Origin: an uncultured Methanosarcinales archaeon
GTDB taxonomy: Archaea > Nanobdellota > Nanobdellia > Woesearchaeales > CAYZNE01
Assembly: GCA_964461035.1 (NCBI GenBank)
Contig: CAYWRI010000002.1
Span: 11,129 to 75,128, forward strand
Length of the DNA: 64,000 nucleotides
Reading direction: 5' to 3'
The translations under genes were made by a program, and so were the position numbers. The notes under the pieces are model-generated. The model ran no database searches, was not told the DNA's origin, and worked only from the letters and a program-made list of their open reading frames with translations. Each line of letters begins with the position of its first letter. Position 1 is the first letter of the stretch. Shown here in pieces: positions 8,304-52,345 of this stretch.

Positions 8304-8362
8304 CTTTAATTTTTTAATAATATTTTTTATAAAACTTATTAAAAAATATGAGTATCACGTAA

Positions 8363-17900: not shown

Positions 17901-20900
17901 TTTTATGCACCCGTAACCACAATAAGTTCATTACCTGAAGGTAATTTATTTGGTAAAGATGTTGTCATAAATTTTTTAAGAGAAGATAATCTTCATCCTC
18001 CTGAAAATATTCATACTTATGCTTGTCTTTATGAAGGAGAATTTGATTCTACAGGTCAAAATCTAATTCCTGATGAATGTAATCCTGCAAGTGAAGGAAA
18101 TGATTGGGACTATCTTGAAGATGGAAATTTTGAACACTTATTTGAACCCCGATCACTTTCTACTATTTTAGTTTATACTTTATATTATTTCTCAGCAGAT
18201 GAATCTAATAATTTTGAAACAATAAAAAGTGAAGTACTTCATATTAATCCAACTCTTCCTTTAATCAATGTTAGTTATTCTTATGAATCATATCCTATAA
18301 ATAATCAATACTTTAACGATTTAGCTGTAACTATATTAGTAACATCTGAGTTTCCAGCGCTTTGTCAAATACAACTTTATTCTGGGCTTGGTGAAGAAAT
18401 TTATCCTGGAGAAGGAATCAATGAACCAATATCATTTATAATTAATTCAGGGGATACAATAGATTTTCCATATTACGAATTATCTGATGGTATTTATAAT
18501 TTTCAAGTTCAATGCACTGATACTTTTTTAGGAAATTCTAATTCTGCATCAAAAGAAATGAGAATACAGGGAGATACAAGAATAAATTCTTCACCCTTTT
18601 ATGAAGTTCTTAAACAAGAATATGTTAACTTTACTGTTCAAACAGCAAATCCTGCTGAATGCTATTATTTAATTAATAATATAAAACACAATTCTGACTT
18701 CGAAACTGTTTATGATCGAGATTCCCAATCTTATAGTGTTATGAAATCTTATTTTGAATCTTCACAAGACTTATCTGATGAAAACTTTGTTGTTAAACAG
18801 TTTGATTCTTCAGAAGAACCTGAAGAAGATGGTTTATATTATCATTATGCTAACGATGTAAACTTTTCAAATCCAAGAAATGTTTCAGGAGTTTATGTTT
18901 ACAATGTTGCATGTAATATAACTATTTACGATCCAGAATTAGAACAAAATGTTTCTGAAATTGTAGAAGGAAATCCAATGCACAGGATAGTTTTTTCTCA
19001 GGATTATACTGCTCCACAAACAGCAATTAAAATGAAAGATTGGAATGATGATTCTTTTGAAGTTTATAATCTTAATTCTGTTTGGAGTCTCGGGCCAAAT
19101 GTTAGTTTTGCATGTAAAGATTTAAATTATTTTGATGATTATTTACCTCTTTGGTTAGAATATGATTCTGATCCAAGAAGAAATTATTTTGTAGAATCAA
19201 ATGTGAATCTTTCAGCAGGTTGTCTAGAACAAAGTAGTTTGAATTTTTGTAGAGTCGGCATGGGTGAAAGTCCTTGCGATCTTCAGCCAATATCGGTTCA
19301 ACCATATACTTTTCTTTTCGAAGATTATGATTGCGAAATTGTAGGATACATTACGGGTATTTGCGAAGTGGTTGGTGTTGGAGGTAATACTGGAGGTCAT
19401 TATAAGAGAGTTTGTTACAATACTATTGATGCACTTGGAAATCAAAGACCAACTTTTTGTGGTGATGTTAAAGTAGACAATGTCGCTCCAGCGTATAATA
19501 GGATAAGTAATAACGATTTTATAGTTTATATGCAACCAATGAGTGAACCACTTACAACAATCGGTCTGGGCTATTATCAGATAGAAATAATTGTTGACGA
19601 AGTTCCTGCAGATTATGATATAAGTCTTTCTATTGCATCAGAAATACTGATTGATCTTGATGAATTTTTTGATGAAGATTCAATGACTCTTTCAGCAACA
19701 TTTATTCCTCATCATTATTTTCCCGAATTATATAATATTAGTGAAAACTTAACATTTAAAATTTATTTAGAAGATGCGCATGGTGTTAGTGATACTTATT
19801 ATAAATATAATTACCTTATTAATACAACTTCTCCGCCAGTACCTCTATTTGAGCCGTTACTTAATGAATTTCATAAACTCAATTATCAAATATTAGATAT
19901 TTTAGGAAATATTTATCCCTTGTTTTATGTTCCAGAGTATTTACTTGATGCAAATGCATATTCATTAGCAAATTTTGATTTAAATGAAACTTTCTTCACT
20001 TATCTTGATGATTTAATAATTACAGGGTTTAGTAGTGCAGATAGTTTTGAACTTGTTCTTAATGACTTAGTAGATGAAAACGCTTTGAATATTCATACTA
20101 TTGATACTTTTATTGCTAATGAGCACGAGTTTATTGACGAGACTGTGCCATTATTAACTGTTCCAATTGTTAATTCTATTGATTACAATAGACAAGGAGA
20201 TATAGAAATATATCTTCCTCACAATGATAATTTAGAAGATATGGTTGGTGCAAGATTAGGTTTACCTATTGATGAAAATAATTATGATTTTGGTTTAGCA
20301 CACGCAGAACAAAAGCAAACTGCATATGGTTCATATTCAAAATTCTATACAGTGCTTAGTATTGCTGAGGATCATATTACTTTAAATGGCGTAGAAGATT
20401 TTCATGTTACAAAATACACTCTTGATGTGTCATTAGAAGAAGATTTGGAATTAGATAAGAATGTTAGTATATATTCCTCGTCTAGTTTAATAGAATCTTA
20501 TCCAAGTAATTACGTGGCTCTTCAGATGCGGGATGTTGAATATAAACAAACTTGTGATCCTAATTCTGGCGGTAATTTCTATGATCTTTCTATTCGTTCA
20601 AAATTTGGAAATGCTGCAACAACAATTGATTCAGAAAAAGTTTTTGTCGATACTGAAAGTCCAAGAGTTGCATACATAACTTTACCACAAGGAACTTATT
20701 CAGAATTAACTCCTGAAATTGGATTTAGCATTATTGAAGGGTCTTGCGGTTCAGGAATAAATATTGATGATTCAAATCTTAATATTATTATAACTGAAAC
20801 GGGTGAATTATATCGACAAATTTCATTATCAGAAATTTTAGTTGATATTTCAGAACCATTCAGTGGAATTGATGTTGCTTATAGCTTTTTATATCAGACT

Positions 20901-22091: not shown

Positions 22092-25000
22092 TAACTTTAA
22101 AAAATAAAAAAAGAGGTGTAGGGCTTTCAGTTAAGAGCTTAAATTTTTTTATTTCTTTCTTATTATTAGTTATGACTATATCATTACTTACTTTACCCGT
22201 AAACGCAGATGATATTATTAAGTATTCAAATAATGCTTATCCTGAATTAACAATAAGTTTTTCAGAACCTATTTTACTAAGTAATGTAACTGCAAATGTT
22301 CGTTGTGCAAATGAAGATGGAAATTGTTTTCAACTATATGACACTCTTGATTCATTTGCAACAGTTTCAAATGATGGAATATCTGTTCAATATGGTCCAA
22401 ATTCAGACAGTTCTGTAATAGTATATTCATTAAATAGACCTTTGTTAAGTGATACATATTTATTTGAAACAACGGTTTCAGACTTACTTGGAAATGAATT
22501 AATTGATTATGAAATTACTTTAATTGTAGATTCTGAATCAGAAAGTATTGAGCTTATTGAACCAATTCAGGGTTGGGCAAATTCAACTTCATTTGATATT
22601 GTTGTTGAAACTCAATTACCCGGTTCTTGTTGGGCTAATCAAGAAGATTTTAAATTTTCACCAAATTTAGATAACACACATCTTTTTACTGATTCAACTT
22701 CAGGAATGCGACACACAATATCTAATATCGCTATTTGGGGAGATGATGCAATGGTTCGACATTCGCCATATGATCTTTATGTTGTTTGTAATTCTTCTAA
22801 TGCGGCAAACTCAAATAAAATTTATCTAGGTCATTTTATATTGGCGTGGGATGATACTCCGCCTAATTTAAATTATCATCCTGAATTTCAATATACTGTT
22901 CTTGATATTACAGAACCCTATGTGGATATGATTATTGAATCAGATTATATAACTGGAGATCCTCCCGATGAAATTGCTTGTAGATTAAAAAATTTAACAG
23001 AAGACGGAATTTCAATACAAAATTCACCCTATGAATTTTTTCCTAATATTAATTATTCTGACTTATGGAATTACACAAAAACAAATACGAAGCGTTTAGA
23101 TTTTTCATATATTCTTGACGGTGGAACGCCTAATGGTGGAGTGCATGAGCCCCATGAGTATAGATTTGAGGTTTCTTGTAGAAATACTGCTAGACTCAAA
23201 CCAACACCTTTTGAAAGAATATATGATATCACTGTGCAATTTGCTGATACATTTAGAATTGAAAAATTACTCCCTCATGATTATGTTAATGCAAATCCGG
23301 TTTTTATAGAAGTAAAAACTTCTGTTGTAACAGACGCTTGTAATATATCTGCTGAAGGTGCATCCTTAGATGAAATAGAACAAATGGTTCAAATTGTTGA
23401 TGAAAAAACATATGCTATATCTTTAAGTGGCTTAGAAGAGGGAACTCATTCTTACGAAGTAACTTGTTACTCTCACATATATACTAGCTCAGGATTGTTA
23501 AGCTTTGATTTTGTTGTTGATAGAACATCACCTTCACTCTTAGATATAAATTCTCTTGTCAAAACTTGCTCGCTTAATTCTTTTGAATTTGAATTATATG
23601 CAGAAGACAATGTCGGTCTTAATTATTTTAAATATAATTTTACGGGAGTTAATGTAAGTATTCAAAACATCATTAATTCAGAAGATACGGAGGACACTGT
23701 AAATGTAGAATTTGATGATTTAGAGTTAATTGAAAATCAAACTTACACAATAACTGCGTGGGTTTATGATCTTGCTAATAATTCTAAAGGTCCTGTAACA
23801 AAAACAATTACTGCTTCAAAACCTAATGATCTTGTTTGTGATTTATATCCTCCATCAATAACACTTAATGTTATTAATGAGTCTATGGGAGAAGTTACTG
23901 TAAAACTAAATTGTCAAGACTCTGGAAGTGGATGTTCTGATAATTATATTTTAGAAAGATTAGGAAATCTATCACATGCTTGCTCTTATTATAGTGGTCA
24001 CGAAATGCCTTTCTCAGACAATATTATAATTTCCTATGACACAAAAATATGTGCGCAAGCACACGATTTATCAGGTAATAGTGTGAATAAATCTTGGATA
24101 ATTGAAGTTCCAACAAATCTTCCTCAATATTGTCAGAATAATGTTAAAGATGAAGATGAATCAGGGATAGATTGTGGTGGTAGTTGTGTGGGGTGTTCTT
24201 TAGATTCTCCTTGTTTTTCAAGCACTGATTGTGTTTCAGGCATGTGGTGCGATCCTACTTTAAATCTTTGTAAATGGGCATCTTGTGATGATAAAATAAT
24301 GAATGGTCAAGAAACAGATATTGATTGTGGCGGTCCAGATTGTACAACTTGTTCAATTAATAGCTCTTGTTTAACATCTGATGATTGTGATAGTAATTAT
24401 TGTACTGCAGAAGGTATTTGTTCTTTATCATCCTGTTCTGATGGAATCATGAATGGTTTTGAAACTGATGATGATTGTGGCGGTCCAGATTGTACACCCT
24501 GTCAAAACGAAAAGGATTGTGATTTTGACACAGATTGTCAAAGTGGTTGTTGTAATTACGGAACTTGCGATGATTGTTCTAGTTCACCTTCACCTCTACC
24601 ACCTCCCCCTCCAAAAGATATTGTTTCGCTCATATTATTAATAGTTGGAATAGTTTTAATTTTGGCAGGAAGCGCTTATCTTTATTACTTGCATGCTAAT
24701 AAATTAAATTCTTCAAATACGCAAATAGGTTTTTCAGATTCTTTATCAGATTCTCGTATTTCAAAATCTAAACAATTAAAAACTCATTTAACAAAAGAGC
24801 AATTATTATCTTTAACCAATAGAAAAAAGCAAATGCGTAACAAATTTAAATCTAGAAAAACAGATAGATTATCTGAAATAGAAACAACCATGTCAGAATT
24901 TGATGAAAAAACTCTCGGAGTAAAAAAAGAAAAAAAAGACCAAACAACTAAAAAAGTTGAAAAACTTGTTGATAATATGGATTTAAAAAATAAGCAAGAT

Positions 25001-25735
25001 AATAATAAAACAGACGATGATAATAAAAAAATAAAAGAAAAACTTTCTGTTGATTTTCCTGCAAAAGATTTTATTTCGCTTAAAGAATTAGAAGAAAGTT
25101 CTGTAGAATTAATGAATAAAGATAAGAAGTTTAAGGATAAAGTTATGACTGATGTTTTTGCGCAATTAGAAAAATTACACGCAACAAAACCAGAAATAAA
25201 AAAAGCAAAGCAAAAAGATAAATTATCTGTTTATTATGATGGAGTTATTCCTGTTGAAGATGAATCTCCTATAGAAACTTTAGAAAAAACTAATTCCTCT
25301 AAAAAAGATTCTTCAAAGACAACTTCTAAAACAGCTTTAAAAATAACTTCAAAAATATCTAAAAATTCAAACAGTAAAAAATCAAAGTCTACAAATTCTA
25401 TGCCGTCTTCTAAAAAAGACGATGATGTTTTTTTGGCTCTAGAAAAAATTTCAAATTCCTCTTCAAAAACATCTTCTAAAAAAGATATAGAACTTAAATC
25501 TGATTCAATTAATTTTAAAAATAATCTTAACGCAGATACGGATAGTATGATTAACTTATTTAAAACTAATGAGTTAAATATTGATGTGTTTAAAGTAATA
25601 CTGTCCGAACTTTTAAACTCAAAAAAACTAAATAAACAAGATGTTTCAGGAATAATATTTAGACTTCTTGAACAAAAACTAATAAAAGAATCTAAAGCAA
25701 ATAAAATATTAACAGAATTAGGGTTATTAAATTAA
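22088..25735 (+). CDS. Type-I membrane surface protein (1215 aa). Order: signal peptide, Ig-like domains, three tandem Cys-rich modules, poly-Pro stalk, TM helix, and a ~350-aa Lys/Ser-rich cytoplasmic tail.
   Basis: GTG start overlaps the stop of the previous gene (GTGA). Signal peptide ...LLTLPVNA|DD. Ig-like boundary motifs WDDTPPNL, VDRTSPSL, CDLYPPSI. Three modules of the form D-x-D-CGG-x2-C-x2-C...MNG-x-ET. Stalk LPPPPPK, TM IVSLILLIVGIVLILAGSAYLYYL, then a K/S/D low-complexity tail. Confidence 0.8.
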   Translation: MITLKNKKRGVGLSVKSLNFFISFLLLVMTISLLTLPVNADDIIKYSNNAYPELTISFSEPILLSNVTANVRCANEDGNCFQLYDTLDSFATVSNDGISVQYGPNSDSSVIVYSLNRPLLSDTYLFETTVSDLLGNELIDYEITLIVDSESESIELIEPIQGWANSTSFDIVVETQLPGSCWANQEDFKFSPNLDNTHLFTDSTSGMRHTISNIAIWGDDAMVRHSPYDLYVVCNSSNAANSNKIYLGHFILAWDDTPPNLNYHPEFQYTVLDITEPYVDMIIESDYITGDPPDEIACRLKNLTEDGISIQNSPYEFFPNINYSDLWNYTKTNTKRLDFSYILDGGTPNGGVHEPHEYRFEVSCRNTARLKPTPFERIYDITVQFADTFRIEKLLPHDYVNANPVFIEVKTSVVTDACNISAEGASLDEIEQMVQIVDEKTYAISLSGLEEGTHSYEVTCYSHIYTSSGLLSFDFVVDRTSPSLLDINSLVKTCSLNSFEFELYAEDNVGLNYFKYNFTGVNVSIQNIINSEDTEDTVNVEFDDLELIENQTYTITAWVYDLANNSKGPVTKTITASKPNDLVCDLYPPSITLNVINESMGEVTVKLNCQDSGSGCSDNYILERLGNLSHACSYYSGHEMPFSDNIIISYDTKICAQAHDLSGNSVNKSWIIEVPTNLPQYCQNNVKDEDESGIDCGGSCVGCSLDSPCFSSTDCVSGMWCDPTLNLCKWASCDDKIMNGQETDIDCGGPDCTTCSINSSCLTSDDCDSNYCTAEGICSLSSCSDGIMNGFETDDDCGGPDCTPCQNEKDCDFDTDCQSGCCNYGTCDDCSSSPSPLPPPPPKDIVSLILLIVGIVLILAGSAYLYYLHANKLNSSNTQIGFSDSLSDSRISKSKQLKTHLTKEQLLSLTNRKKQMRNKFKSRKTDRLSEIETTMSEFDEKTLGVKKEKKDQTTKKVEKLVDNMDLKNKQDNNKTDDDNKKIKEKLSVDFPAKDFISLKELEESSVELMNKDKKFKDKVMTDVFAQLEKLHATKPEIKKAKQKDKLSVYYDGVIPVEDESPIETLEKTNSSKKDSSKTTSKTALKITSKISKNSNSKKSKSTNSMPSSKKDDDVFLALEKISNSSSKTSSKKDIELKSDSINFKNNLNADTDSMINLFKTNELNIDVFKVILSELLNSKKLNKQDVSGIIFRLLEQKLIKESKANKILTELGLLN
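24165..24580 (+). repeat. Three tandem copies of a Cys-rich module of about 48 aa (about 145 nt) within CDS 22088..25735.
   Basis: IDCGGSCVGCS..., DIDCGGPDCTTCS..., DDDCGGPDCTPCQ.... The stretch 'gattgtggcggtccagattgtaca' is identical in copies 2 and 3. Confidence 0.7.
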
Positions 25736-36715: not shown

Positions 36716-37102
36716 ATGTTAACATTTCAATTTGTACCATATGAGGATATAAGAGGACTTGATTCAGATCAGAGAATAAAGCGACTTTTAAGCATGGTTA
36801 AATCAGAAAAAATAATTCTGTTAGCAGGTCATCTTAAAAGTCAAGAAGAGGCAGAACTAATAAAAAGAACAATGGAAGCAATATCTAAAACCTTTAAAGG
36901 AATAGAGATAGGTTCTATTTCTCCAAGACATGCTAACAAGTTTAAAGAATTTTTGCTCAGAACTTTTTTCGGTGAAGAAACAGGATTTACAATTATAGGT
37001 CCTGCATCTGTAATAAAAGAAATAAAACAAGATCCAGGTAAAATTCAATTATTTATGAATGAAGCTGAAGGAAAAAAATCTATTAATAAGAGAAAAAGAT
37101 AA
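36716..37102 (+). CDS. Small conserved protein, DUF2073-like, that partners the GTPase.
   Basis: 128 aa, directly downstream of the GTPase and upstream of the Zn-ribbon gene. The family assignment is from memory of this conserved archaeal trio and was not verified. Confidence 0.4.
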   Translation: MLTFQFVPYEDIRGLDSDQRIKRLLSMVKSEKIILLAGHLKSQEEAELIKRTMEAISKTFKGIEIGSISPRHANKFKEFLLRTFFGEETGFTIIGPASVIKEIKQDPGKIQLFMNEAEGKKSINKRKR

Positions 37103-37103
37103 A

Positions 37104-37490
37104 ATGCCACATCAATGTGTTAAATGCGGAGAAATATATGATTCTGGTACAGATGTTATTCTAAAAGGATGTAGAAAATGTGGTGGAAAGATGTTCTTTT
37201 TTATTAAAAAAGATGCATTAGCTAAAAGAAAAAATATTGTTAAAAATCTTTCTGAAGAAGAAAAAATTCAAATAGAAAAAGATGTTTATGACATTATGGG
37301 TGAAGATATAGATAAGGAAAAGCCTATAATACTTGATATTGAATCAATAAACATTCTTAAACCAGGAAAATATGAACTCGACCTTGTTAATCTCTTCAAG
37401 AAAAAACAACCACTGATTTATAAACTCGAAGATGGCAAATATATTATTGATTTAATTGAAACTTTTAATAAATTTCTAGGTAAAAAGTGA
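37104..37490 (+). CDS. Zn-ribbon protein (DUF2072-like).
   Basis: MPHQCVKCGE...GCRKCGG gives a CxxC...CxxC ribbon. The start is adjusted to the ATG immediately after the upstream stop. Confidence 0.5.
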   Translation: MPHQCVKCGEIYDSGTDVILKGCRKCGGKMFFFIKKDALAKRKNIVKNLSEEEKIQIEKDVYDIMGEDIDKEKPIILDIESINILKPGKYELDLVNLFKKKQPLIYKLEDGKYIIDLIETFNKFLGKK

Positions 37491-38834: not shown

Positions 38835-40274
38835 TTATAAAGATTTTTGCAAATGATATTTATCAAATACCATCTTAACAATCTCTTTACTTTGTCCAAT
38901 ATATTTAGTTGGATTAGTTATTTGAACTATTGTATCGTTACTTAATCTTGAAGTTACTTCATCGCTTTCAAGAAGCACATTTACAAAAGGAATTTTATTA
39001 TTCCATGCATAAGTTGCTAATGCACCCATTAAATCATGAGCTTCTGATCTAGTCATAGGATTATCTGTTTTATTGTTATCTGTTAGATAAGTCATAACTT
39101 GTTGAGATGTAGTACAACCATAACTCCTTAAAACTCTTTCTTTAGATCGTTTTGCACGTATTTGAATATCATACATTATTCTACTCAATCTTCTAATTCC
39201 ATGATCCAAAAACTTGAATCCGTCTTCTAAATTTATTCTTGCGTTTGAAGATGCAGATAAATCTCTTGCATATAACATTTGACAATTCATCATTCCCGTA
39301 GTTAAATTTCCAACTAAATAGTTAGCAATAGACATAACTTGTTCTTCTGCAGTGGGATTTCCTCCTTTTACATCTTTATGAGGCATTGCTGAACTACCCT
39401 TCATTTTTTTACCTGTGTTAACAAAAATATTTACATCATCACTTCGTCCCCATGCAATGTATCTTGCTAAGTTATTCATTGTTGTTCCAAGTCTGGCAAT
39501 AGCATAAAAAATATCTGCTTCAAATTCTAAGCCTGGAAGTTGTGCAGGTGCCATCATCCATCCAATACCTAAATCTTTACAATATTCTTCTTGTAATTTT
39601 ATTCCATCAACACCTAATGCTGTTGCTGAATGATTATTTCCTGTAGCATCTACCCATTTTCCAATAATTGAATTATTGTAAACAAATTTTATAACATTAA
39701 GATCAGATTGAAGCATTTCTGCATAAAAACTAAGAGGTCTTCCAGCAACAGTTGGTAGAGCATCATATAAATGAGACGTATCCATGTGGGGAACATCAAT
39801 CCAAGCTATAGATTTTTCCAAAACAATATCTCTTAAATTTTCAACAGAATTTGTTATTACTTCAAGAGCTTCTTTAACTTGGAGTGCTCTTGCAGGTTGA
39901 GTTGTATCTGCACTTGTTTTGAACTGGTTAATATGTGTTCCAGCATCATGACTTACAACTTCTTCTAAAGCAGTGTTAATTGCAATAACATCATGACCTG
40001 TTTGTTCTTCAAGTACTCTAATTCTATTTGCATCTATATGCTTTAAAGAAGCCTTTTCTTTTAATTCTTTAGCACATTTTGGAGGAACAATTCCTGGATA
40101 TAATCTAGATAATGTTTCTGCAGCTTGACCTTGAACATTTAAACTTTTTTCAAATGTTTGTTCAGGTCCAAAAATATTAATCATTTCTAAAGTTCCGTAC
40201 CTTCCTGCAGCTAATGAAGAAACATCTGGTTCAAAATTTTTTGGAAATCTTGCTTTTGGTTCAGTTTTTATCAT
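38835..40274 (-). CDS. purB: Adenylosuccinate lyase (fumarate-lyase superfamily).
   Basis: Signature GSSAMPHK...NP. 479 aa. Confidence 0.7.
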   Translation of the reverse strand: MIKTEPKARFPKNFEPDVSSLAAGRYGTLEMINIFGPEQTFEKSLNVQGQAAETLSRLYPGIVPPKCAKELKEKASLKHIDANRIRVLEEQTGHDVIAINTALEEVVSHDAGTHINQFKTSADTTQPARALQVKEALEVITNSVENLRDIVLEKSIAWIDVPHMDTSHLYDALPTVAGRPLSFYAEMLQSDLNVIKFVYNNSIIGKWVDATGNNHSATALGVDGIKLQEEYCKDLGIGWMMAPAQLPGLEFEADIFYAIARLGTTMNNLARYIAWGRSDDVNIFVNTGKKMKGSSAMPHKDVKGGNPTAEEQVMSIANYLVGNLTTGMMNCQMLYARDLSASSNARINLEDGFKFLDHGIRRLSRIMYDIQIRAKRSKERVLRSYGCTTSQQVMTYLTDNNKTDNPMTRSEAHDLMGALATYAWNNKIPFVNVLLESDEVTSRLSNDTIVQITNPTKYIGQSKEIVKMVFDKYHLQKSL

Positions 40275-44118: not shown

Positions 44119-44712
44119 TTAGATTATTATAACTTCTCCATCTTTTAGTGCTTTGAATTTAATATTTTTATTTTTTAACGAATCAATAAGTTTTTGTGCA
44201 TTATCAGACTCGCTATGATTAGACTGAAAATGAGGCACAATCACAAAATCAATAAGTCCGAGGCCATCCCAAACAATATCTGTGTTATAAGGATTCAGAT
44301 TTGGATCATCCATGATTCTAAATTCTTTAACACTATCTGAAAGCACGCAGACTCCCGCACTATATCCTCCATAAATTATGTTAATTTCAGAAAGAATTTC
44401 ATCAAATCTGCTAAGTTTCATTGCTTGTCTGAGAACAAAAACATTACCTCCTCTAACCCAAACTATATCAAATGATTCTAATTTTTTCTTTAATTTTTTC
44501 TTTTTTCCAAAATAAGTTCTAAGATCTATTTTATCTACTGAGAATCCTAATTCCTGTAATTCATCAATGTCTTTTTGTTCACTTATTTTACGTCTTTTAA
44601 AATCATCTGAGTAGTCCAGAGCATTGGATATGTATGCTAATTTCTTACCCTCTAAAGATTTTAGCTTGTCAAACTTATTCCCTAATTTATATGATGAAAG
44701 GTAAAATCTCAT
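44119..44712 (-). CDS. Peptidase S51 family (dipeptidase E / cyanophycinase-like).
   Basis: RGGNVF...GGYSAGVCVL is the S51 nucleophile region, and VIVPHF is the catalytic His region. Confidence 0.55.
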   Translation of the reverse strand: MRFYLSSYKLGNKFDKLKSLEGKKLAYISNALDYSDDFKRRKISEQKDIDELQELGFSVDKIDLRTYFGKKKKLKKKLESFDIVWVRGGNVFVLRQAMKLSRFDEILSEINIIYGGYSAGVCVLSDSVKEFRIMDDPNLNPYNTDIVWDGLGLIDFVIVPHFQSNHSESDNAQKLIDSLKNKNIKFKALKDGEVIII

Positions 44713-44795
44713 ATTACCTTATTGAATGATAACACTTTAAATAATTTTTGTATTTAAGAAAGATATTTAAATTTGTTGTACTTACTTAGAATATT

Positions 44796-46013
44796 ATGGG
44801 TGAAGAAAAATTTCAGAAGTTAGTTAAGGCTGCTAAGATATCGGCTAATACTTATCCTGTAAAGGGTGTGGACATATTATTGCCTTTAGGTAAAGCGATT
44901 CTTTCTAATATTGAAAATTTATGTTTATCTTCCTATAAAGACATTGGTTATAAAGAAGTTAGTCTTCCAACAGTATTACCTGAAAAACTTATAGCGCACT
45001 TGAGAAAAGACGGATTGTTTAAATTCAATAATGAATTTGGGCAATATTTTCTTGCTCCAGGCTATGAAACTCAAGCAGTTCTAATGTTTAATGATATTAT
45101 CGATAATTATACTATGTTTCCAGTAAAAATATTCAATATTGGCAGTGCTTATAGACAAACTGCTAAAACACATCTTATTAAGAATTTAGAATTTAGAATT
45201 ATTGAATTTAACTCCTTTTTTAAACTAAGAGAAGACGCTGAAAACGAACTTGATAAATTTAATAAAATTGTTCCGAGAAATCTTAATGCTTTAGAAATTC
45301 CTTGGATTAAATCTAAAGATTCTAAAAATCCTAATGCACAACATAAGTTTTTCGCTTTCTTTCCACACTCTGAACGATTTGGTAGTGTGGCTTGTAATTT
45401 GATAGCAGATTATAAATACACTCAAGCACATGCAATTTCTCTAATCGATGAAAATCATAATCATTTTTATCCTGTTCAATTAAATGCTAGTTTTACAGGA
45501 AGGATGCTCGCAGCGTACTTATCGAATCATATGTATGAAGAAAGAGGTTTCATGTTAGGAAATAATATTTCTCCATATATGGTCCTAGTTAATGAATTAG
45601 ATTTTGATAAACAAGAACTAACTGGATTGACAAGAAGATTTCGTGAAAGTAATATATCTTATCTTCTCTTAAGACAAAAGAGTAATACTCCCAGTTATAA
45701 ACAGTTCATTGCATCAGGCATACCTTTTCAGTTAGGATCAGGAAAACATGATTTGAAAATTAGGAAGAGAGGAGAGGATGTCATCTGGGTAAATTCTAAT
45801 AATGTTATTGAAAGACTTTTATCTCTTAATGAAAATACATTTTCTGTAGATGCTAAGGTTATAAAAGTCATTGAGATAAGCGAAATTCGTAAAGAATATG
45901 CTTCAGATGCAGTATATGTAACAGATAATCCTGCTTTCAATCCGCAAAATAAACTTAAGTTTATTGGTTTTAACGAAGAGAATCAGAGATTGTTCGTGAA
46001 GATGAAGTATTAA
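44796..46013 (+). CDS. Prolyl-tRNA-synthetase-like class IIa aaRS paralogue (archaeal/eukaryotic type, C-terminal Tyr). Motif 2 looks divergent.
   Basis: N-terminus YPVKGVDILLPLGKAILSNIENL...GYKEVSLPTVLPEKL is like archaeal ProRS. The class IIa anticodon-binding region is ISPYMVLVNEL. The protein ends ...KMKY. However, motif 2 reads YRQTAKTHLIKNLEFRIIEF, where the usual fRxE...R(E)F..EGH residues appear substituted, and at 405 aa it is short. Confidence 0.5.
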   Translation: MGEEKFQKLVKAAKISANTYPVKGVDILLPLGKAILSNIENLCLSSYKDIGYKEVSLPTVLPEKLIAHLRKDGLFKFNNEFGQYFLAPGYETQAVLMFNDIIDNYTMFPVKIFNIGSAYRQTAKTHLIKNLEFRIIEFNSFFKLREDAENELDKFNKIVPRNLNALEIPWIKSKDSKNPNAQHKFFAFFPHSERFGSVACNLIADYKYTQAHAISLIDENHNHFYPVQLNASFTGRMLAAYLSNHMYEERGFMLGNNISPYMVLVNELDFDKQELTGLTRRFRESNISYLLLRQKSNTPSYKQFIASGIPFQLGSGKHDLKIRKRGEDVIWVNSNNVIERLLSLNENTFSVDAKVIKVIEISEIRKEYASDAVYVTDNPAFNPQNKLKFIGFNEENQRLFVKMKY

Positions 46014-46999
46014 TGATTAATTATTTTTATCTCGGGATTATTAATATTTGCATCTATAGCTGCATATCCTCCTATTGGAAATATGTTTTTAGGATTGGTG
46101 TGACCAAAATCGGCATTCATTATTGTGGGAACATAAAGACCTATCTTGTCAAGAGCATCAGTTATGGCTTCTGTGGTTATTCCTAATGAACTTTGAAATC
46201 TTCCGAATACAATTCCTTTTAATCCATAGAAACCGTCAAATTGAGATATGGCAAAAAGCATCTCTCGAAAAAACTTAGAATGGTTCTTCATTTTTCTATC
46301 TGCCGTTTCAAGAAAGAGTATTTCTCCTTCAAGGTTTAAGATGTATTTTTGATTTAGCATTACAAGTGTGTCTATGTTTCCTCCAAGTATTGATCCTTTT
46401 GCAGACCCTTCTCTTAAAACTTTTAATCCATTACTTTTCTTAAAATCTCTGTTTATCTGATTTACCGCCCAATAATCATTACTCCAAAATTCAGAAGATC
46501 GTAGAATGTAAGCTTCTTCTTTAAACAGCACGTCTTTAATAGAATTATAAGATAATTCAAAATTTTTCTTCTCTGCAAAATCAAAGAAATTAATACCGTA
46601 ATATGTTACTAGTTCTGCTTTTTTTAATAAAGCATTCTGCAAAGAAGTAATATTCGAATAACCTATAAATATCTTCGGATTTTTTCTTATTATATCATAA
46701 TTGATGAAATTTAAAAGTTCACCGCAGTTGTAACCTCCGATAGTTGATATAATTGCTTTTACATCAGGATCTAAAAAAGCTTCTTCCAAATCTTGCAAAC
46801 GAGATTTAATACTTGTAGTGTCAGAATTTGAAGATCCTTCAGAATTTTTTCCATATGTGACGTAAAGACCTAATGACTCTATTTTTTTCTGGCTTAGGAT
46901 TGGAATGTCTGATGAAATACTTCTTATGAATTTGATTGATCTTGCTGGAGAAATTACTCTAATTTGATCACCTTTACTAAGTTTGGCTGGAAAATTCAT
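46010..46999 (-). CDS. Peptidase S66 family (LD-carboxypeptidase LdcA / microcin-C immunity MccF-like).
   Basis: Nucleophile motif GYSNITSL (GYSDxTxL-like) and the DFGH catalytic His region. It sits 7 nt downstream of ThrRS on the same strand. Confidence 0.6.
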   Translation of the reverse strand: MNFPAKLSKGDQIRVISPARSIKFIRSISSDIPILSQKKIESLGLYVTYGKNSEGSSNSDTTSIKSRLQDLEEAFLDPDVKAIISTIGGYNCGELLNFINYDIIRKNPKIFIGYSNITSLQNALLKKAELVTYYGINFFDFAEKKNFELSYNSIKDVLFKEEAYILRSSEFWSNDYWAVNQINRDFKKSNGLKVLREGSAKGSILGGNIDTLVMLNQKYILNLEGEILFLETADRKMKNHSKFFREMLFAISQFDGFYGLKGIVFGRFQSSLGITTEAITDALDKIGLYVPTIMNADFGHTNPKNIFPIGGYAAIDANINNPEIKIINH

Positions 47000-47006
47000 T
47001 ATAAGA

Positions 47007-48464
47007 TTACTTGAATAAAACTCTTTTGCTAATTAAAGGATTTAGCATCAATCTTTCATAAGGGAAATTTTCAATACGCTTATGTATTGTATTGTAAAGT
47101 TGTTCAGGGCTTGTTTCAAAAGTTTCTTTATCCGCTCTAACTCTTACAGGGATAAGTTTTGATTCTAGTTCTTTTTCGCCAATAACAACTATGTAGGGAA
47201 CCCAGTCTTTTTCAGCAAGTCTTATTTTTTTTCCAACACTAAGATTTCTATCATCTACTTCTGTTCTTATTTTTTTACTGTCAAAGTAATTTAGTAGTTC
47301 TATTGAATGATCTAAATAGGACTCTGATACAGGCACTATTCTTAATTGTGACGGTGCTAACCAAAAGGGAAATTCTGGAACTTTACCTTCTCTTTGATCT
47401 ATTGCGGTATTTTCAAGGATGCTACATAGAGCCCTTTCAATACTTCCAAAACTTGAAGCGTGAAGTATAACTTCTGCAGGTCTCTTTTTTCCGTCGATAG
47501 TAGGTCCAATTCCAAAACGTTCACCATTTTTCACATCCCATTGAACAGTTGAAATTTGAATATTTGATCCATCTGAATTTATACTTTGATACTCATTCTT
47601 AAATGCAAAATAATGTGACATTTCGGGCATTAGTTTGATAAGTGCAGGAACATTAAGATTATCACTTACTGATTTGAACCAATCTTTATTCTTATCAAAG
47701 TATTCATTAGTAGTTTCCCATCCCATAACCCATCTGTCTTTTGCAATTACATTATTCATAAGTCCTGCAAAGAGTTCTGATAATTCTTCAAACTCTTGTT
47801 TTGCTTGTTCGCCGGTATCATAAACTCCGTGCATATCAGTCATAATAAACCATCGCATTCTTTTTAGTCCTGATACTGAACCTTCTAATTCATTTCTGAA
47901 GCAATAAGCTTCTTCATAAACCTTTAGCGGTGATTGTTTTTCAGAATAGATAAGGTTTTGCATGAATGGAAAACCTAGCGGGTCTGAAGCATATCTTAAG
48001 TAAGCTTTTCCTCTTCCACCATCAACAGTATAATTGTTTTCGTGAAATTCGCCCATTAGTTTCATAACCAATTCGTTGTCAGCCTTCATTATTAAAGGAT
48101 TGCCCATTTCTAATGCACCCCATTTATAGGCTAATTCTTTTGCATAATCAAGCATCAGGTTTCTCATTACCATTCCCTTTGGATACCATTTCATATGACC
48201 TTTTTCTGAAACGTCGCAATAGTCTACAAGATCATGTCTTTTCATTAATTCTATGTGGCTTACCTTATTATTTGCGGGTTTAGTAGTCGTTTCTAAATTC
48301 AATTCATTATTTATGAATTGTTGTAAGAATTTTGCTTGATAATTCGTTTTCTTAAAATAAGGATGCTTTTTAAAATTTTCGTCATGTATTTGTATGATGT
48401 CTGTTCCTGGTGCTGTCCAGTAAAAGCTTTTAAATTTTCCTCGCTCTATATTTGATTCGACCAT
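47007..48464 (-). CDS. thrS: Threonyl-tRNA synthetase, catalytic plus anticodon-binding domains only. It has no N-terminal TGS or editing domains.
   Basis: Motif 2 SPLKVYEEAYCFRNELEGSVSGLKRMRWFIMTDMHGV aligns residue for residue with ThrRS LPLR..E...CHRNE.SG.L.GL.RVR.F.QDD.H, including the Zn-ligand Cys and His. Also HIELMKRHDLVDY / GHMKWYPKG at the start of the domain. Class IIa anticodon domain WLAPSQLRIVPVSE. 485 aa, against about 620-640 for a full-length ThrRS. Confidence 0.75.
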   Translation of the reverse strand: MVESNIERGKFKSFYWTAPGTDIIQIHDENFKKHPYFKKTNYQAKFLQQFINNELNLETTTKPANNKVSHIELMKRHDLVDYCDVSEKGHMKWYPKGMVMRNLMLDYAKELAYKWGALEMGNPLIMKADNELVMKLMGEFHENNYTVDGGRGKAYLRYASDPLGFPFMQNLIYSEKQSPLKVYEEAYCFRNELEGSVSGLKRMRWFIMTDMHGVYDTGEQAKQEFEELSELFAGLMNNVIAKDRWVMGWETTNEYFDKNKDWFKSVSDNLNVPALIKLMPEMSHYFAFKNEYQSINSDGSNIQISTVQWDVKNGERFGIGPTIDGKKRPAEVILHASSFGSIERALCSILENTAIDQREGKVPEFPFWLAPSQLRIVPVSESYLDHSIELLNYFDSKKIRTEVDDRNLSVGKKIRLAEKDWVPYIVVIGEKELESKLIPVRVRADKETFETSPEQLYNTIHKRIENFPYERLMLNPLISKRVLFK

Positions 48465-48548
48465 GTAAATTAGAAGTGGTTTAAACTTTATAAATTTATC
48501 TTAATTCTTAAGTGACTAAATTCTTTTTTGGGTCATAAATATCTTGAT

Positions 48549-49352
48549 TTATCTTGAGGATAAGTTGTTCTTTTGTTTTTCATTCCATAAATAAAGATAT
48601 TTGGGTAGAAATTTGTCCAGAAAAGAGGTTATTTTTTCTTTGTCATTCATAGGGTTCATTTCATACATCAGAACTTTTTTTATGTCTACTGAAAGTTGAG
48701 GAAATTCTGTAGATATAATTTCTGCACATTTGTGGAGGTTAGGAGTATATACTGCTTTTTTAAACATGACTAATCCAAGACCCGACCTTAATATTGTTCT
48801 CATAGTCCATCTGCACCAGAATTCAGGCGCTCTAACTCTGGATAAGTATGAACGTGACTCATCATTTTTGAAATAGTTATAAAAATCAAGTAATTCTTTA
48901 TTAATATTAGAGTACATAAAAAGAGCGAGTTTCTTATTGGCTTTGAAAGGGGTTATGTCTGAAATCACGTCTTTGCCATATAATAAACACGATTGCGTTT
49001 TAAGATAAACTCTTAATCTCTTATATTTAGAGGACATTAATAGTTTATGCGTTAGAATAGTTATATCTACTTCAGAAACAATTGAAAACTCGTGTTCCAA
49101 AGAATCTATAATTTGTAAGACTTTCTTTATTTCTTTTTTATCAGATGTAGATTCCTTAAAAACTACAATGTCAATATCTGACATATATTTTAATCCTTTA
49201 CCTTCAGATAAGCTTCCTCTTAAATATATTGAAATCGGCTTAAGCTCCAAAGTTATTCTTTTCATTGCTTCTTCAGTTAATTTCTTGAAAGTAGGTTGAA
49301 TCTTCTTTATGTTACTTTCATTTAAAATAGTTCCATTATCCAATATTTTCAT
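48549..49352 (-). CDS. Nucleotidyltransferase-fold protein (Pol-beta superfamily).
   Basis: LRGSLSEGKGLKYMSDIDIVVF matches the GS...DxD minimal NTase motif. Confidence 0.45.
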   Translation of the reverse strand: MKILDNGTILNESNIKKIQPTFKKLTEEAMKRITLELKPISIYLRGSLSEGKGLKYMSDIDIVVFKESTSDKKEIKKVLQIIDSLEHEFSIVSEVDITILTHKLLMSSKYKRLRVYLKTQSCLLYGKDVISDITPFKANKKLALFMYSNINKELLDFYNYFKNDESRSYLSRVRAPEFWCRWTMRTILRSGLGLVMFKKAVYTPNLHKCAEIISTEFPQLSVDIKKVLMYEMNPMNDKEKITSFLDKFLPKYLYLWNEKQKNNLSSR

Positions 49353-49355
49353 TTT

Positions 49356-51122
49356 TCACACGAAATCTTTAATTCCAAACAAATCTAGGTGTATTATAAA
49401 TGCATCAATACAATCAGTTCTGTGAAGTCCACAAAAAACCATAGAACAGTATTTATTTATATAATTGTCTTTTGTAGGTAAACCAAACATAGATCTTAAA
49501 GAATCATCTTTTTTATTTTGATATGCTTTGAAATGTCCAATATCTGAGTTCAATCTTTTAATAGTTTCTCCGTTCTCATGTTTAAGAATTAAAACTTGGA
49601 AATTCTCTCCAAAATTAGATTTTTTATATGCTTCTTGAAATATGTCTGTTATTTTTTTGTCAGGATAATCAGCTGAATACATTTGAGACACTTTATCTGA
49701 GAATTTATTTAGTTTATAAGAGTTAAGTATTTTATATCCTCTTCTGATTACTTCTGATTTGATTTCTTCAAATCTGTTCATTGATTCAGGTCTGACTACA
49801 AGCATTGAAACATCAAGCTTTTTTACCTGTTGATATCTGCTGTTACTTTGACGGGCTCTACCATTAAAAAGATCAATCCTTCCTGAAACAACATCTTTTA
49901 GTATATAATCTTCCTGATCTGAAAAAATAATTGTTGTGTTTTCGGTTTCATAATATTCTTTTATAAAAATCATAATATTTTTGATAGATTGGGAATCTAA
50001 TCCTGCAAATGGTTCATCTATTATGAGTAGTTCTGGTTTTTTCATCAACGTTGAAGCAATAAGTAATAATTGTTTTTGACCTCTGCTTAGAAAAAAAGGG
50101 TGTTCTTCTTTTTTATGTTCTAAATTTATTCTTGTTAGTACTCTTAGAAGCTCTTTTTTAGTGAAATTACTCTCAAAGTTTAGTTCTTCCAAGACAGAGT
50201 TAGCGAAGAGTTGTTTTTCGGGCTCTTGCATTATCATTGCACAGGATTTAAAATTTAGATTAATGTTCCCTTTTGATTTTTTAATATTATTTGTTATGAT
50301 ATTCAGGAGGGTTGTTTTTCCGGATCCATTAGGTCCGAATATTCCAAAAATCTGACCTTTTTTTATATTAAAATTAATATCTTTGAGTGCAATTGTTCTG
50401 TCCGAATAAGTTTTATGAACGTTTCTGAATCTAATCAGATCATTTCTTGATTTTTTTTCTTTAAATTTTACAAGTTTAATTTTTTCAGGTATGTTACCTT
50501 TTATCCATTTTCCATTATTATAACTTATTATTTTATTTCCAATCCTAAAAAGTTTATCGTCATGAGTGCATAATACGATTATTTTATTAGGGGATATTAG
50601 TTTGAGATGTGAAACAAGCCTTTTTCTATGTTCGTTGTCTAGGTTAGATGTCGGTTCATCAAGAAGTATTATGTCTTTATCCTGTGCCAGCACCGAAATA
50701 ATAGATAAGATTTTTCTCTGTCCTGTAGATAAATCCTTTAGACTCTTTGATTTGAGATTTTCTACATGAAAATACTTTAAGAGATTATCTGCAAGGAACT
50801 GTTTGTTGCGAGATATTGAAAAAAATAATTCGTGTTCCAATGTGCTAAGTATAAATTGATTTTCAGGTTCTTGAAATGCGAAAGAAATATGTTTTCTGAG
50901 ATTATTTAAATCTTCTTCTTTTCCATAAGTTATTTTTCCTGAGAAAATAGATTCTTGAATTTCAGGAATTAATCCGGAAATTGCTTTTAGCAAAGTTGTC
51001 TTTCCGCAACCAGTACTTCCTATTAGGACTAATAGGTCTCCTTTCTTCAACTTTAATGAAAAGTTTTCCATTAGTAGTTCTTTCTCAAATCCGAGTTTAT
51101 TTATTTGTATGTTTAAAATCAT
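49356..51122 (-). CDS. ECF-type ABC transporter ATPase with two fused ABC domains (EcfA-EcfA') and an extra C-terminal domain of about 165 aa that resembles nucleoside-diphosphate kinase.
   Basis: Two Walker A sites (GSTGCGKTT and GPNGSGKTT), two signature/Walker B sites (LSTGQRK...LLDEPTSNLD and LSRGQKQ...IIDEPFAGLD), then a C-terminal domain; see the finding at 49356-49880. Confidence 0.75.
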   Translation of the reverse strand: MILNIQINKLGFEKELLMENFSLKLKKGDLLVLIGSTGCGKTTLLKAISGLIPEIQESIFSGKITYGKEEDLNNLRKHISFAFQEPENQFILSTLEHELFFSISRNKQFLADNLLKYFHVENLKSKSLKDLSTGQRKILSIISVLAQDKDIILLDEPTSNLDNEHRKRLVSHLKLISPNKIIVLCTHDDKLFRIGNKIISYNNGKWIKGNIPEKIKLVKFKEKKSRNDLIRFRNVHKTYSDRTIALKDINFNIKKGQIFGIFGPNGSGKTTLLNIITNNIKKSKGNINLNFKSCAMIMQEPEKQLFANSVLEELNFESNFTKKELLRVLTRINLEHKKEEHPFFLSRGQKQLLLIASTLMKKPELLIIDEPFAGLDSQSIKNIMIFIKEYYETENTTIIFSDQEDYILKDVVSGRIDLFNGRARQSNSRYQQVKKLDVSMLVVRPESMNRFEEIKSEVIRRGYKILNSYKLNKFSDKVSQMYSADYPDKKITDIFQEAYKKSNFGENFQVLILKHENGETIKRLNSDIGHFKAYQNKKDDSLRSMFGLPTKDNYINKYCSMVFCGLHRTDCIDAFIIHLDLFGIKDFV

Positions 51123-51768
51123 ATTCTTTCAAAATATACGCTTGATTCAATAGTTCTATTTTCTTAAAATTGGATAGCAAAATAACCACGCCTATGTAAA
51201 ATATTCTCTTGAGTTTTTTCTTGATGCTATTTGCAACAAACCCCCTTGATTTTAAGGCAGAGTTTATTTTTGTGATATCGCCCAGTGTGAATCCAATAGT
51301 GTTAAACGCTATTGTAAACATGAATATTAAATTTATTGGCGCTTTGATTTTTAACATGGAGTTAATAATATCTTTTTCTGAACTGATTGCCATAAAAAAT
51401 GTTCCTGCAAGCACCACAACAATCCATCTTGATGCAGCAAGGAGCATAAGTGATAAAGTATTATTTGAAAAAAATGTTCCCCAGGGTAATGTAAATATAA
51501 TTTCCCCTTGAATTTTGCTCAAAAATATCCAAAAAAGAGAAAAGATAATTATTGCTATTGAAAGAGATTTATATACTGTCAAATTATAAAACTTTATTGA
51601 CATCAAAAGTAATATCAATAAAACCATAATTGTAAAATTTAGAATTAAGTTTTTATTTAGAACTCCTATCATACTTATAATAATAAAAAAAAGGAGTTTA
51701 AATAAAAAACTCACTTTATTAAAAAAAGAACAACTTTCTAAGTAATGAATAAATGTGGGCTCTTTCAT
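51097..51768 (-). CDS. ECF transporter transmembrane (T) component, CbiQ/EcfT-like.
   Basis: 223-aa polytopic membrane protein immediately upstream of the ATPase and overlapping it. Confidence 0.5.
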   Translation of the reverse strand: MKEPTFIHYLESCSFFNKVSFLFKLLFFIIISMIGVLNKNLILNFTIMVLLILLLMSIKFYNLTVYKSLSIAIIIFSLFWIFLSKIQGEIIFTLPWGTFFSNNTLSLMLLAASRWIVVVLAGTFFMAISSEKDIINSMLKIKAPINLIFMFTIAFNTIGFTLGDITKINSALKSRGFVANSIKKKLKRIFYIGVVILLSNFKKIELLNQAYILKEYDFKHTNK

Positions 51769-51778
51769 TAAGCTACCT

Positions 51779-52345
51779 TTACCAAAATTTCTTTACGAAT
51801 AATGATGTTTTTTTGATAAAAGGACTTAAATATTTTAGTAAAGGTATTCCTATAATTATTGAAACTATTACGTCACCTATTAACCAACCATAAATTGAAG
51901 CGACTATTGCTTCTGCAGGCATTATTCCAAAATAATAGAATCCTGTTAGTACCCACGCTGATGAGATAACACTTTGTAATATTGTGACGGAAATTATAAA
52001 TCCTAGAAAATCTTTAGGTTTTTTTAATTCCATATTAAACCATTTTTTAAAGAATATCATGGGGATTATCACACCTATAACATTTCCCCAAGCCAACAAA
52101 AATGCATAAATTGTGAAAGTACCTGAAATTAAGGCACCTAACAAGAGTCCGATGTATATGGATATAAGTGCTTTTCCTTTAAACCAAATTGCGAATGCGG
52201 TGTAGAATGCTGAACCAATATAGAATGCAGAAGCGCCCATTATTCCAATTGGAAAAATAATGACTCCAATATAGTCAAGTATTGCAACAAGTCCTGCAAT
52301 AACACCTATTAATATAAAATCGTTTAGTTTATTTGTTTCTTCCAT
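51779..52345 (-). CDS. ECF transporter substrate-specific (S) component-like membrane protein.
   Basis: 188 aa, 5-6 TM helices, first gene of the S-T-AA' block. Confidence 0.45.
   Translation of the reverse strand: MEETNKLNDFILIGVIAGLVAILDYIGVIIFPIGIMGASAFYIGSAFYTAFAIWFKGKALISIYIGLLLGALISGTFTIYAFLLAWGNVIGVIIPMIFFKKWFNMELKKPKDFLGFIISVTILQSVISSAWVLTGFYYFGIMPAEAIVASIYGWLIGDVIVSIIIGIPLLKYLSPFIKKTSLFVKKFW

Follow-up and report, generated by a model that had tools for sequence, protein, structure and literature searches.

A ProRS-derived paralogue in an accessory gene cassette of DPANN archaea, together with an energy-coupling factor importer and hydrolases of families S66 and S51

New enzymology and natural antibiotic resistance owe much to divergent extra copies of aminoacyl-tRNA synthetases (aaRSs), which coexist with the housekeeping enzyme in an accessory context. 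Described examples are ProRSx of Streptomyces, the albomycin-resistant SerRS2 and the indolmycin-resistant TrpRS, and such copies represent a classical resistance device by which an inhibited target is bypassed (reviewed in PMC9437257). Processed microcin C, an aaRS inhibitor of the aminoacyl-nucleotide type, is hydrolysed by MccF, a member of peptidase family S66, and by MccG, a member of family S51 (PMC8323819, PMC9239234), S51 being the second microcin-C resistance hydrolase family for which this was shown experimentally (PMC9239234). Two further described systems are relevant here. Group II energy-coupling factor (ECF) transporters (EcfAA'T plus an S component) combine tandem ABC domains with a T component of the CbiQ type, their genes standing in the order S-T-AA', and the split ThrRS-cat/ThrRS-ed arrangement of Crenarchaeota contains an archaeal ThrRS with catalytic and anticodon-binding domains that is devoid of the N-terminal editing domain. 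In this work we describe a locus that resembles each of these systems in part. It lies in a stretch of 64,000 nucleotides (contig CAYWRI010000002.1, positions 11,129 to 75,128; hereafter the window), in which positions 44119 to 52345 constitute an accessory gene cassette of DPANN (Pacearchaeota-like) archaea.

The central gene of this study encodes a ProRS-derived paralogue of 405 amino acids, which we call ProL and which appears to represent a rare, distinct and so far undescribed protein family. Literature searches returned no description of the ProL family, of the fusion of ECF, kinase and NDK-like domains reported below, or of the cassette. The features of the region are the following:

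44119–44712, minus strand: S51 peptidase (PepE/MccG family), 197 amino acids, divergent from ProL; PF03575, 73.9 bits.
44713–44795, no strand: divergent intergenic region of 83 nt with a TATA-like element, TATTTAAA, at −32 to −25 of the ProL ATG, as read from the sequence.
44796–46013, plus strand: ProL, ProRS-derived paralogue, 405 amino acids; it comprises a catalytic core, an anticodon-binding-like domain and a short domain at the C-terminus, with KMKY as its last residues.
46010–46999, minus strand: S66 serine hydrolase of the MccF-like subfamily, 329 amino acids; Pfam S66 and S66C.
47007–48464, minus strand: ThrRS, archaeal type without editing domain, 485 amino acids; NF003068, 397.5 bits.
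48487–48494, minus strand: TATA-like element, TTTATAAA, at −30 to −23 of the ThrRS ATG, within an 84-nt gap, as read from the sequence.
48549–49352, minus strand: nucleotidyltransferase (NTase) of the Pol-beta fold, 267 amino acids, with a conserved C-terminal helical domain (FWCRWTMRTILRS); PF01909, 27 bits.
49356–51122, minus strand: fused EcfA-EcfA' ATPase with two ABC_tran domains and a C-terminal NDK-like domain (approximately 49359–49808).
51097–51768, minus strand: EcfT (CbiQ family) transmembrane component; PF02361, E 3e-10.
51779–52345, minus strand: putative ECF S (substrate-capture) component, 188 amino acids, hydrophobic, first gene of the operon.

Starting at 52345, the S component, EcfT, EcfAA', NTase, ThrRS and S66 genes form a co-directional run on the minus strand, separated in this order by 10 nt, a 26-nt overlap, 3, 84 and 7 nt, so that ThrRS and S66 are its final two genes. 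The one sizeable gap, of 84 nt, holds TTTATAAA, a possible internal promoter; like TATTTAAA upstream of ProL, it is weak evidence in a genome of 72% AT. An initial annotation had described four of these genes, those for S51, ProL, S66 and ThrRS. Their coordinates, strands and lengths were all correct and their family assignments hold, including the 405 residues and C-terminal Tyr of ProL and the 7-nt gap on one strand between ThrRS and S66. The cluster is larger than the four-gene neighbourhood proposed at that time, which did not mention the ECF, NTase and NDK-like parts.

To place ProL, we compared it with canonical ProRS by profile, structure and residue pattern. ProL scored 62.4 bits on TIGR00408, below the ProRS equivalog cutoff of 437, and a canonical ProRS used as tblastn query left the ProL gene undetected at E ≤ 10. 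A word-indexed search of 5.8 billion proteins returned only ProL itself and one relative of 52% identity, while an exhaustive profile search of 1.84 billion representatives yielded about 21 full-length ProL clusters of 393–456 amino acids. The family is sharply delimited, with members at E values from 1e-78 to 1e-39, followed by a gap and then by canonical ProRS at 1e-18. Among species-representative genomes, searched with a profile built from two ProL sequences, the sole match was the genome encoding P0002 (locus L006, CAYONI010000003.1). The record of this closest ProL relative is titled Methanosarcinales; its gene content and a GC content of about 30%, measured on the equivalent locus L001, look DPANN-like, and the label is probably wrong.

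Similarity to ProRS extends over the entire protein. An AlphaFold (AF2) model calculated from the family alignment reached a pLDDT of 92.5 and was aligned by Foldseek to ProRS of M. jannaschii (1NJ8) over all three domains, with a TMq of 0.85 at 18% identity. Comparison by hhalign with 55 canonical archaeal-type ProRS sequences gave a probability of 100% at 14% identity, colinear over the full length. ProL thus has the three-domain architecture of the archaeal/eukaryote-type ProRS (TIGR00408; 1NJ8, 1NJ1, 1H4Q). Both groups also have in common the motif-2 and motif-3 Arg (R120 and R236, each invariant in 23/23 ProL members), the TxE Glu (E91, 22/23), the Glu of 'WxExH', the conserved GIP motif and the C-terminal Tyr, present in 19/23; a Glu in the second motif-2 strand, E137, is found in 21 of the 23. 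On the other hand, ProL is only 14–18% identical to these enzymes and about 70 amino acids shorter, lacks the zinc-binding cysteines of the C-terminal domain, and has lost the Glu of the motif-2 'RxE', which is T122 in the window protein and variable across the family. The motif-2 loop Arg is replaced by a conserved Lys, K129. The suggestion of the initial annotation that motif 2 had lost its canonical Arg and Glu was therefore right for the Glu and wrong for the Arg, R120 being invariant.

The most pronounced differences concern the amino acid site. Proline-pocket positions, which we take to be the T of TxE, the W and H of WxExH, the T and H of TsH and the W of SWG, were mapped by profile alignment to residues described in structural work on ProRS. 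At these positions, where ProRS has Thr, Trp, His, Thr, His and Trp, ProL has S/G89, S/I135, N139, variable residues at 200–202 and A231, and a different set is conserved in the family (S/G89, N139, F141, F142, Y186, F199, W/C200, Y208 and N230). This is the residue pattern expected of a protein that still makes or binds an adenylate and whose amino acid site has been remodelled.

Related loci, designated here by L numbers, show how ProL stands to genuine ProRS. L093 is a 12.3-kb contig of a related archaeon, and its ThrRS shares 63% identity with that of the window. The contig encodes a canonical archaeal ProRS (477 amino acids), an S51 peptidase, a bacterial-type ProRS of 410 amino acids (no INS domain; TIGR00409, 501 bits), an NTase, the ECF operon, a ProL member (P0243, 397 amino acids, 39% identical to the ProL of the window) and a short ThrRS. 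Three ProRS-type genes, of 477, 410 and 397 amino acids, thus lie within 12 kb of a small-genome archaeon. L098 has a bacterial-type ProRS, again without INS domain, 40 nt downstream of a ProL member. Because family members share contigs with canonical ProRS in relatives, ProL is a paralogue, as the initial annotation had supposed for the ProRS-like gene in calling it possibly repurposed.

The relation of L093 to a further locus, L087, reveals the accessory nature of the cassette. Both are from strains with 86–90% DNA identity. In L087, thrS and the canonical proS are separated only by a 1.4-kb insertion sequence element, whereas L093 carries at the same site a 7.4-kb block running S51, bacterial ProRS, NTase, ECF, ProL. 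From this difference it follows that the block is an accessory cassette and that thrS and the canonical proS are housekeeping flanks. These results bear on the explanation that ProL is simply the fast-evolving, shortened housekeeping ProRS of a reduced genome, found in its neighbourhood by coincidental synteny. That ProL has the complete ProRS architecture, catalytic Arg residues and a C-terminal Tyr would agree with such an enzyme, and no other ProRS was found within the 64-kb window or in 21 kb around P0002. ProL coexists, however, with canonical ProRS of the archaeal and/or bacterial type in L093 and L098, it was lost together with the cassette in the sister strain that keeps its canonical ProRS, its proline pocket is replaced by a different conserved set, and a sharp score gap separates it from all canonical ProRS. 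We therefore rejected a degenerate housekeeping ProRS, which is the least probable of the explanations considered here. An analogy to ProRSx is limited as well: ProRSx is of bacterial type and has a special tRNA, whereas ARAGORN detected no tRNA gene near ProL in nine loci, which argues against a ProRSx-like dedicated tRNA.

Relatives of ProL are also present outside the archaea. The reading frame of the ProL homologue P0258 (L095, 686–1942) contains 14 in-frame TGA codons at conserved Gly positions. This points to genetic code 25 (UGA = Gly) for L095 and to a Gracilibacteria-/Absconditabacteria-type bacterium as its source, from which it follows that the pair of ProL and NTase has crossed domains. 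Database translations show Trp at the TGA sites of P0258 and apparently, judging from a W-for-G pattern, likewise in P0259.

Five contexts offer enough flanking sequence to judge the neighbourhood of ProL (the window, L001, L093, L094 and L096/97), and the ECF operon lies beside ProL in 5/5. Several of the contexts examined lie on short contigs. In some contexts ProL meets the final operon gene tail-to-tail, in others it is arranged head-to-head with the gene for the S component. The recurrent set consists of ProL, the ECF importer, an NTase or APH-family kinase, and S66, with or without S51, and the NTase accompanies a ProRS-type gene in four contexts, among them the code-25 bacterium. Genes for aaRSs are frequent neighbours: a ThrRS adjoins ProL in the window, in L093 and, as a bacterial-type ThrRS, in L095, while a class I LysRS and a class II LysRS-like gene (377–379 amino acids) lie beside the cassette in L096. 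The neighbourhood is hence not random, in agreement with what had been suspected from the window alone, as ProL, S66, S51 and aaRS genes recur together.

The same LysRS pair also borders the ECF-S66 operon in L102; the stretch in view there contains no ProL gene. The LysRS-like gene (L096, 2335–3468; L102, 9557–10696) scores 142–162 bits against cutoffs above 420 and shows similarity to EpmA/GenX. It is located directly upstream of the class I LysRS, and both are transcribed convergently to S66 of the ECF operon.

Within the window, thrS and S66 are adjacent, and the initial annotation had placed this pair at the core of the locus: an operon of ThrRS-cat and S66, in which S66 would clear aminoacyl-adenylate mimics or offset the missing editing for ThrRS, with ProL and S51 as accessories. 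The 7-nt gap on the same strand, the TATA-like box upstream of thrS, the MccF-like nature of the S66 and the editing-less ThrRS all speak for such a coupling. When conservation of the linkage was checked, adjacency of thrS and S66 was found in 0/80 metagenome thrS loci, 12 of which were without an editing-domain match, and in 0/4 closer loci with a short ThrRS (L087, L089, L091 and L093). A thrS-S66 operon as a conserved unit was rejected, since the adjacency is absent from the other thrS loci examined and is specific to the lineage of the window. The conserved partners of S66 are instead the ECF operon and ProL (L094, L096, L102), and thrS behaves as a housekeeping flank, being retained where the cassette is deleted. 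In the lineage of the window, an ordinary ThrRS gene was placed between NTase and S66 by rearrangement; in a relative it flanks the cassette. The ThrRS-S66 model is thus largely refuted and we give it very little credence.

The ThrRS itself is catalytically intact by its residues and is predicted to be an ordinary, active archaeal enzyme without editing domain. It aligns to positions 161–612 of 613 of NF003068 and is accordingly of the archaeal type. PF00587 matched its catalytic core. Across 14 relatives there is no variation in the class II motifs, nor in C187 (YCFRNE), H211 (TDMH) and H334 (ILHASS), presumably the equivalents of the zinc ligands C334, H385 and H511 of E. coli ThrRS. The anticodon-binding domain HGTP (PF03129, 65 bits) covers residues 373–462. 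ThrRS had initially been described as lacking both the TGS and the editing domain. The second part stands, as the portion missing from a model alignment that begins at 161 is the archaeal editing domain PF08915. The first part does not apply, because full-length homologues carry PF08915 and no TGS: in the tabulated matches each of the long homologues had PF08915 and none had TGS listed. The short form is no rarity: among the 120 best homologues, 45 are of 480–529 amino acids without PF08915 and 75 are of at least 600 amino acids, and the ThrRS of the window was placed in a clade of at least 14 short forms.

Compared with the crenarchaeal split system, the window ThrRS has the same domain content and is a new member of an already known kind. 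Two differences are apparent. A tblastn search with six editing domains detected no free-standing editing-domain gene (ThrRS-ed) either in the window or among 22 related loci, which leaves the earlier statement that this enzyme needs trans-editing unproven. Furthermore, the clade of the window enzyme is broad, with short and long forms interspersed, and includes sequences labelled as bacterial at their source. A further pair of editing-less class IIa paralogues was noticed in L091, where a divergent ThrRS-like gene of 466 amino acids (9461–10861; NF003068, 288 bits; no editing domain, catalytic domain unseen in Pfam matches) starts 5 nt downstream of a short ThrRS (8001–9455).

The adjacency of ProL to synthetases of this kind permits the explanation that ProL serves class IIa synthetases devoid of an editing domain as a partner or regulator, forming a heterodimer with the short ThrRS or the INS-less ProRS or helping in, e.g., tRNA delivery or fidelity, with the peptidases and the transporter being incidental. 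HisZ provides a precedent for a role of this type. Trans-oligomerisation of ThrRS duplicates has been documented (PMC4787780). ProL is adjacent to ThrRS in three contexts (window, L093, L095) that involve two unrelated ThrRS types, its neighbour in L098 is a bacterial-type ProRS lacking INS, a ProRS of this type belongs to the same cassette as ProL in L093, and all these synthetases are without cis-editing domains. A purely structural partner, however, would not need the catalytic Arg residues and the strongly conserved pocket of ProL, the ProL of L001 has no aaRS within 10 kb, and ProL contains no editing-type domain. We therefore consider a partner function improbable.

The first half of the six-gene run encodes the importer, recognised by EcfT (PF02361), two PF00005 domains and a small hydrophobic first gene of 188 amino acids, all in one operon. 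In gene order, CbiQ-type T component and tandem ABC domains it corresponds to the group II ECF transporters. It differs from these in three respects: its S component matches no described family, its ATPase carries a fused NDK-like domain, joined in relatives by an APH-type kinase, and its operon continues into the NTase and the S66 hydrolase. No match above noise to Pfam, NCBIfam or the PDB was obtained for the S component, which is at the same time the best-conserved protein of the cassette, with 61–81% identity in L001, L093, L094 and L096; the other cassette proteins reach 30–45% in the distant relatives L093, L094 and L096.

Fusion of the NDK-like domain to the C-terminus of EcfAA' occurs in the window, L001, L093, L096 and L102. 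Its Pfam scores are below threshold and consistent with each other (from 20.5 bits in L096 through 23 in the window to 24.1 in L102), and it gave no informative PDB sequence match. An xxH(R/K)x(D/N) motif at the position of the NDK active-site His is kept in five EcfAA' orthologues. In L096 and L102, an APH-family kinase domain is inserted between the ABC and the NDK-like domains of EcfAA', and a free-standing APH kinase of L094 is 34% identical to the fused form of L096/L102 (E 1e-46). This free-standing kinase occupies in L094 the slot of the NTase. The NTase has weak matches to ANT(9), CCA and MntA, and its orthologues are convergent to the ProRS-type gene in L001, L093 and L095, while in the window thrS and S66 lie between NTase and ProL.

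The S66 hydrolase, encoded at the end of the run, keeps an intact signature, as had been noted for the window: its catalytic triad of Ser115, Glu231 and His300 aligns with the triad positions of MccF and BA_5613. Compared with solved structures, it is closest to BA_5613, which is labelled MccF-like (E 1e-71), and Lmo1638 (1e-68), followed by MccF (1e-29) and, with partial coverage, LdcA (1e-7). On the LdcA equivalog NF008424 it scored 52 bits against a cutoff of 378. Its W177 is aligned with W186 of E. coli MccF (chain residue 213), which makes a stacking contact with the adenine of processed microcin C (PMC8323819). These data agree with the earlier assignment of the protein as MccF-like rather than LdcA-like. 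The subfamily is large, with 5,864 matches at E ≤ 1e-10 from DPANN archaea, candidate-phyla bacteria and Bacillota. In L094, in L096 and in a named Pacearchaeota genome (L102–104), the ECF operon ends with S66. A tail-to-tail overlap of the ProL and S66 stop codons was seen at the same GTATTAATG junction in the window and in L094, despite only 30% and 40% identity of the respective ProL and S66 proteins.

The best solved relatives of the S51 peptidase are Lmo0363, DR_1070 and PepE (E 1e-11 to 5e-9). Its GYSAG Ser and PHF His align with the nucleophile and the His of Lmo0363 and DR_1070, and the acid of the triad is probably D191 or E193. S51 accompanies the cassette in the window, L001 and L093; in the latter two, orthologues of 54–69% identity adjoin a ProRS-type gene. 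S66 and S51 are members of known families, and the likeness to MccF and MccG lies in the two families standing side by side in the window, with the triad and adenine-stacking Trp of the former and the Ser and His of the latter retained. In contrast to these, neither gene of the window is part of an mcc-type biosynthetic cluster, the host is an archaeon, and the S66 protein is closer to BA_5613 and Lmo1638 than to MccF.

Taken together, we favour the reading that the cassette provides importer-coupled protection of translation against Trojan-horse aaRS inhibitors, a function that we infer tentatively and to which we attach somewhat less than even confidence. The cassette would deal with aminoacyl-nucleotide-like molecules that enter through the importer. 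Molecules with an aminoacyl and a nucleotide part are suggested by the cleavage of processed microcin C by families S66 and S51, by the retained Trp of S66 and by the retained adenylate-contacting residues of ProL. Upon entry, the MccF-like S66 and the S51 peptidase, of the MccG family, may hydrolyse the aminoacyl-nucleotide amide bond, and the NTase or APH-type kinase, which appear to be interchangeable, may modify a hydroxyl group in the manner of antibiotic-inactivating enzymes. With its remodelled pocket, ProL would bind ATP and form or bind an aminoacyl-adenylate through the motif-2 and motif-3 Arg and the TxE Glu. It would act as a tRNA ligase that is insensitive to the inhibitor or altered in specificity, or else as a decoy that binds adenylates. 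Class IIa aminoacylation (ProRS/ThrRS) could in this way be kept working. The apparent interchange of NTase and APH at one position of the operon resembles antibiotic inactivation, for which either kind of modification serves; an anabolic route calls for a single defined product.

Several points weigh against protection. The role described for ECF transporters is the uptake of vitamins and micronutrients, and their pairing with detoxifying enzymes is unusual. An S component conserved at 61–81% is more readily explained by a nutrient than by an arms race. At 14–18% identity, ProL is further from ProRS than the known resistance paralogues are from their housekeeping counterparts; these, to our knowledge, keep the substrate pocket and much higher identity, and none of them is known to be linked to an ECF importer. 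We know of no published or experimentally established substrate for the closest relatives of the S51 protein or for BA_5613 and Lmo1638, the nearest relatives of S66. The S51 protein of the window is assigned at the level of the S51 family, of which MccG forms clade V, and a DPANN orthologue of S66, P0086, has neither ECF nor aaRS neighbours, so that the linkage is not universal. PADLOC reported no defence model in the window beyond generic ABC-ATPase and weak NTase matches, and the annotated genes of the window showed no biosynthetic gene of the microcin type. Descent within one archaeal order may explain part of the recurrent synteny, and the functions of all components are read from comparison.

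The same proteins could also form a nutrient-salvage cassette; of the competing explanations this is the strongest, and we regard it as possible and, on balance, unlikely. In such a cassette, the ECF importer would take up a nucleoside-like or amino-acid-conjugated nutrient, which the APH-like kinase and the NDK-like domain (or the NTase) would trap and activate. S66 and S51 would free amino acids from conjugates or peptides, e.g. scavenged cell-wall peptides, ProL would be a tRNA-independent or altered-specificity ligase using the product, and the aaRS genes would cluster with the cassette for reasons of amino acid supply. The physical fusion of kinase and NDK-like domains to the importer ATPase speaks for salvage, as does an S component that is the most conserved protein, as for a fixed nutrient. 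Auxotrophy is generally ascribed to DPANN archaea. In two genomes the cassette has genes of purine salvage in its vicinity, namely adenylosuccinate lyase at 38835–40274 of the window and adenylosuccinate synthase adjoining the S component in L001 (15157–16674). However, a kinase and an NTase in one slot imply different products, which is tolerable for inactivation and odd for anabolism. Moreover, the cassette is dispensable in the sister strain and has moved between domains, and the S66 subfamily keeps the nucleotide-stacking Trp of MccF, not the features of LdcA.

Protection and salvage differ in what they would imply. Protection would show how organisms that import most of their metabolites guard translation from Trojan-horse inhibitors, while salvage would point to an unknown nutrient and to new ligase chemistry. 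A more far-reaching proposal goes as follows: ProL would found a new aaRS-like family, descended from archaeal-type ProRS, that activates a non-proline substrate, within a mobile cassette of DPANN archaea and code-25 candidate-phyla bacteria whose kinase/NDK-fused importer and MccF/MccG-type hydrolases take up and process, or neutralise, aminoacyl-nucleotide-type molecules. In this full form we consider the proposal rather doubtful. If true, a non-proline ProL acting with importer and hydrolases would make up a pathway that is undescribed in any organism.

Irrespective of function, ProL is a compact, conserved ProRS-derived family in ultra-small symbionts of both prokaryotic domains, carried in a cassette that strains can lose. 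It is accompanied there by an ECF importer with kinase-like fusions and by two hydrolase families whose sole shown specialised role is the destruction of aminoacyl-nucleotide antibiotics. Automatic annotation would either miss ProL or name it ProRS, which distorts aaRS inventories of genomes from DPANN archaea and the candidate phyla radiation (CPR).

The window as a whole is in line with a DPANN host. Its GC content is about 28%, and it encodes TrmB, OapB, OapC and archaeal-type ThrRS and ValRS, which identify it as archaeal; the nearest named relatives of its genes are DPANN archaea (Pacearchaeota, Woesearchaeota). No RNA genes were detected in the window by Rfam or ARAGORN. The complete ValRS (3724–6207; NF009687, 1058 bits) is an ordinary housekeeping gene located 40 kb from the cluster and unconnected to the cassette. 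OapB and OapC (36716–37490; surroundings 35–39 kb) adjoin a minimum of the cumulative GC skew near 36 kb, and this region may be a replication origin; a search for origin-type or origin-recognition-box repeats near these two genes gave nothing convincing. Finally, two very large consecutive open reading frames of 2390 and 1215 amino acids occupy positions 14919–25735, and our guess is that they encode surface proteins of the DPANN/CPR type.

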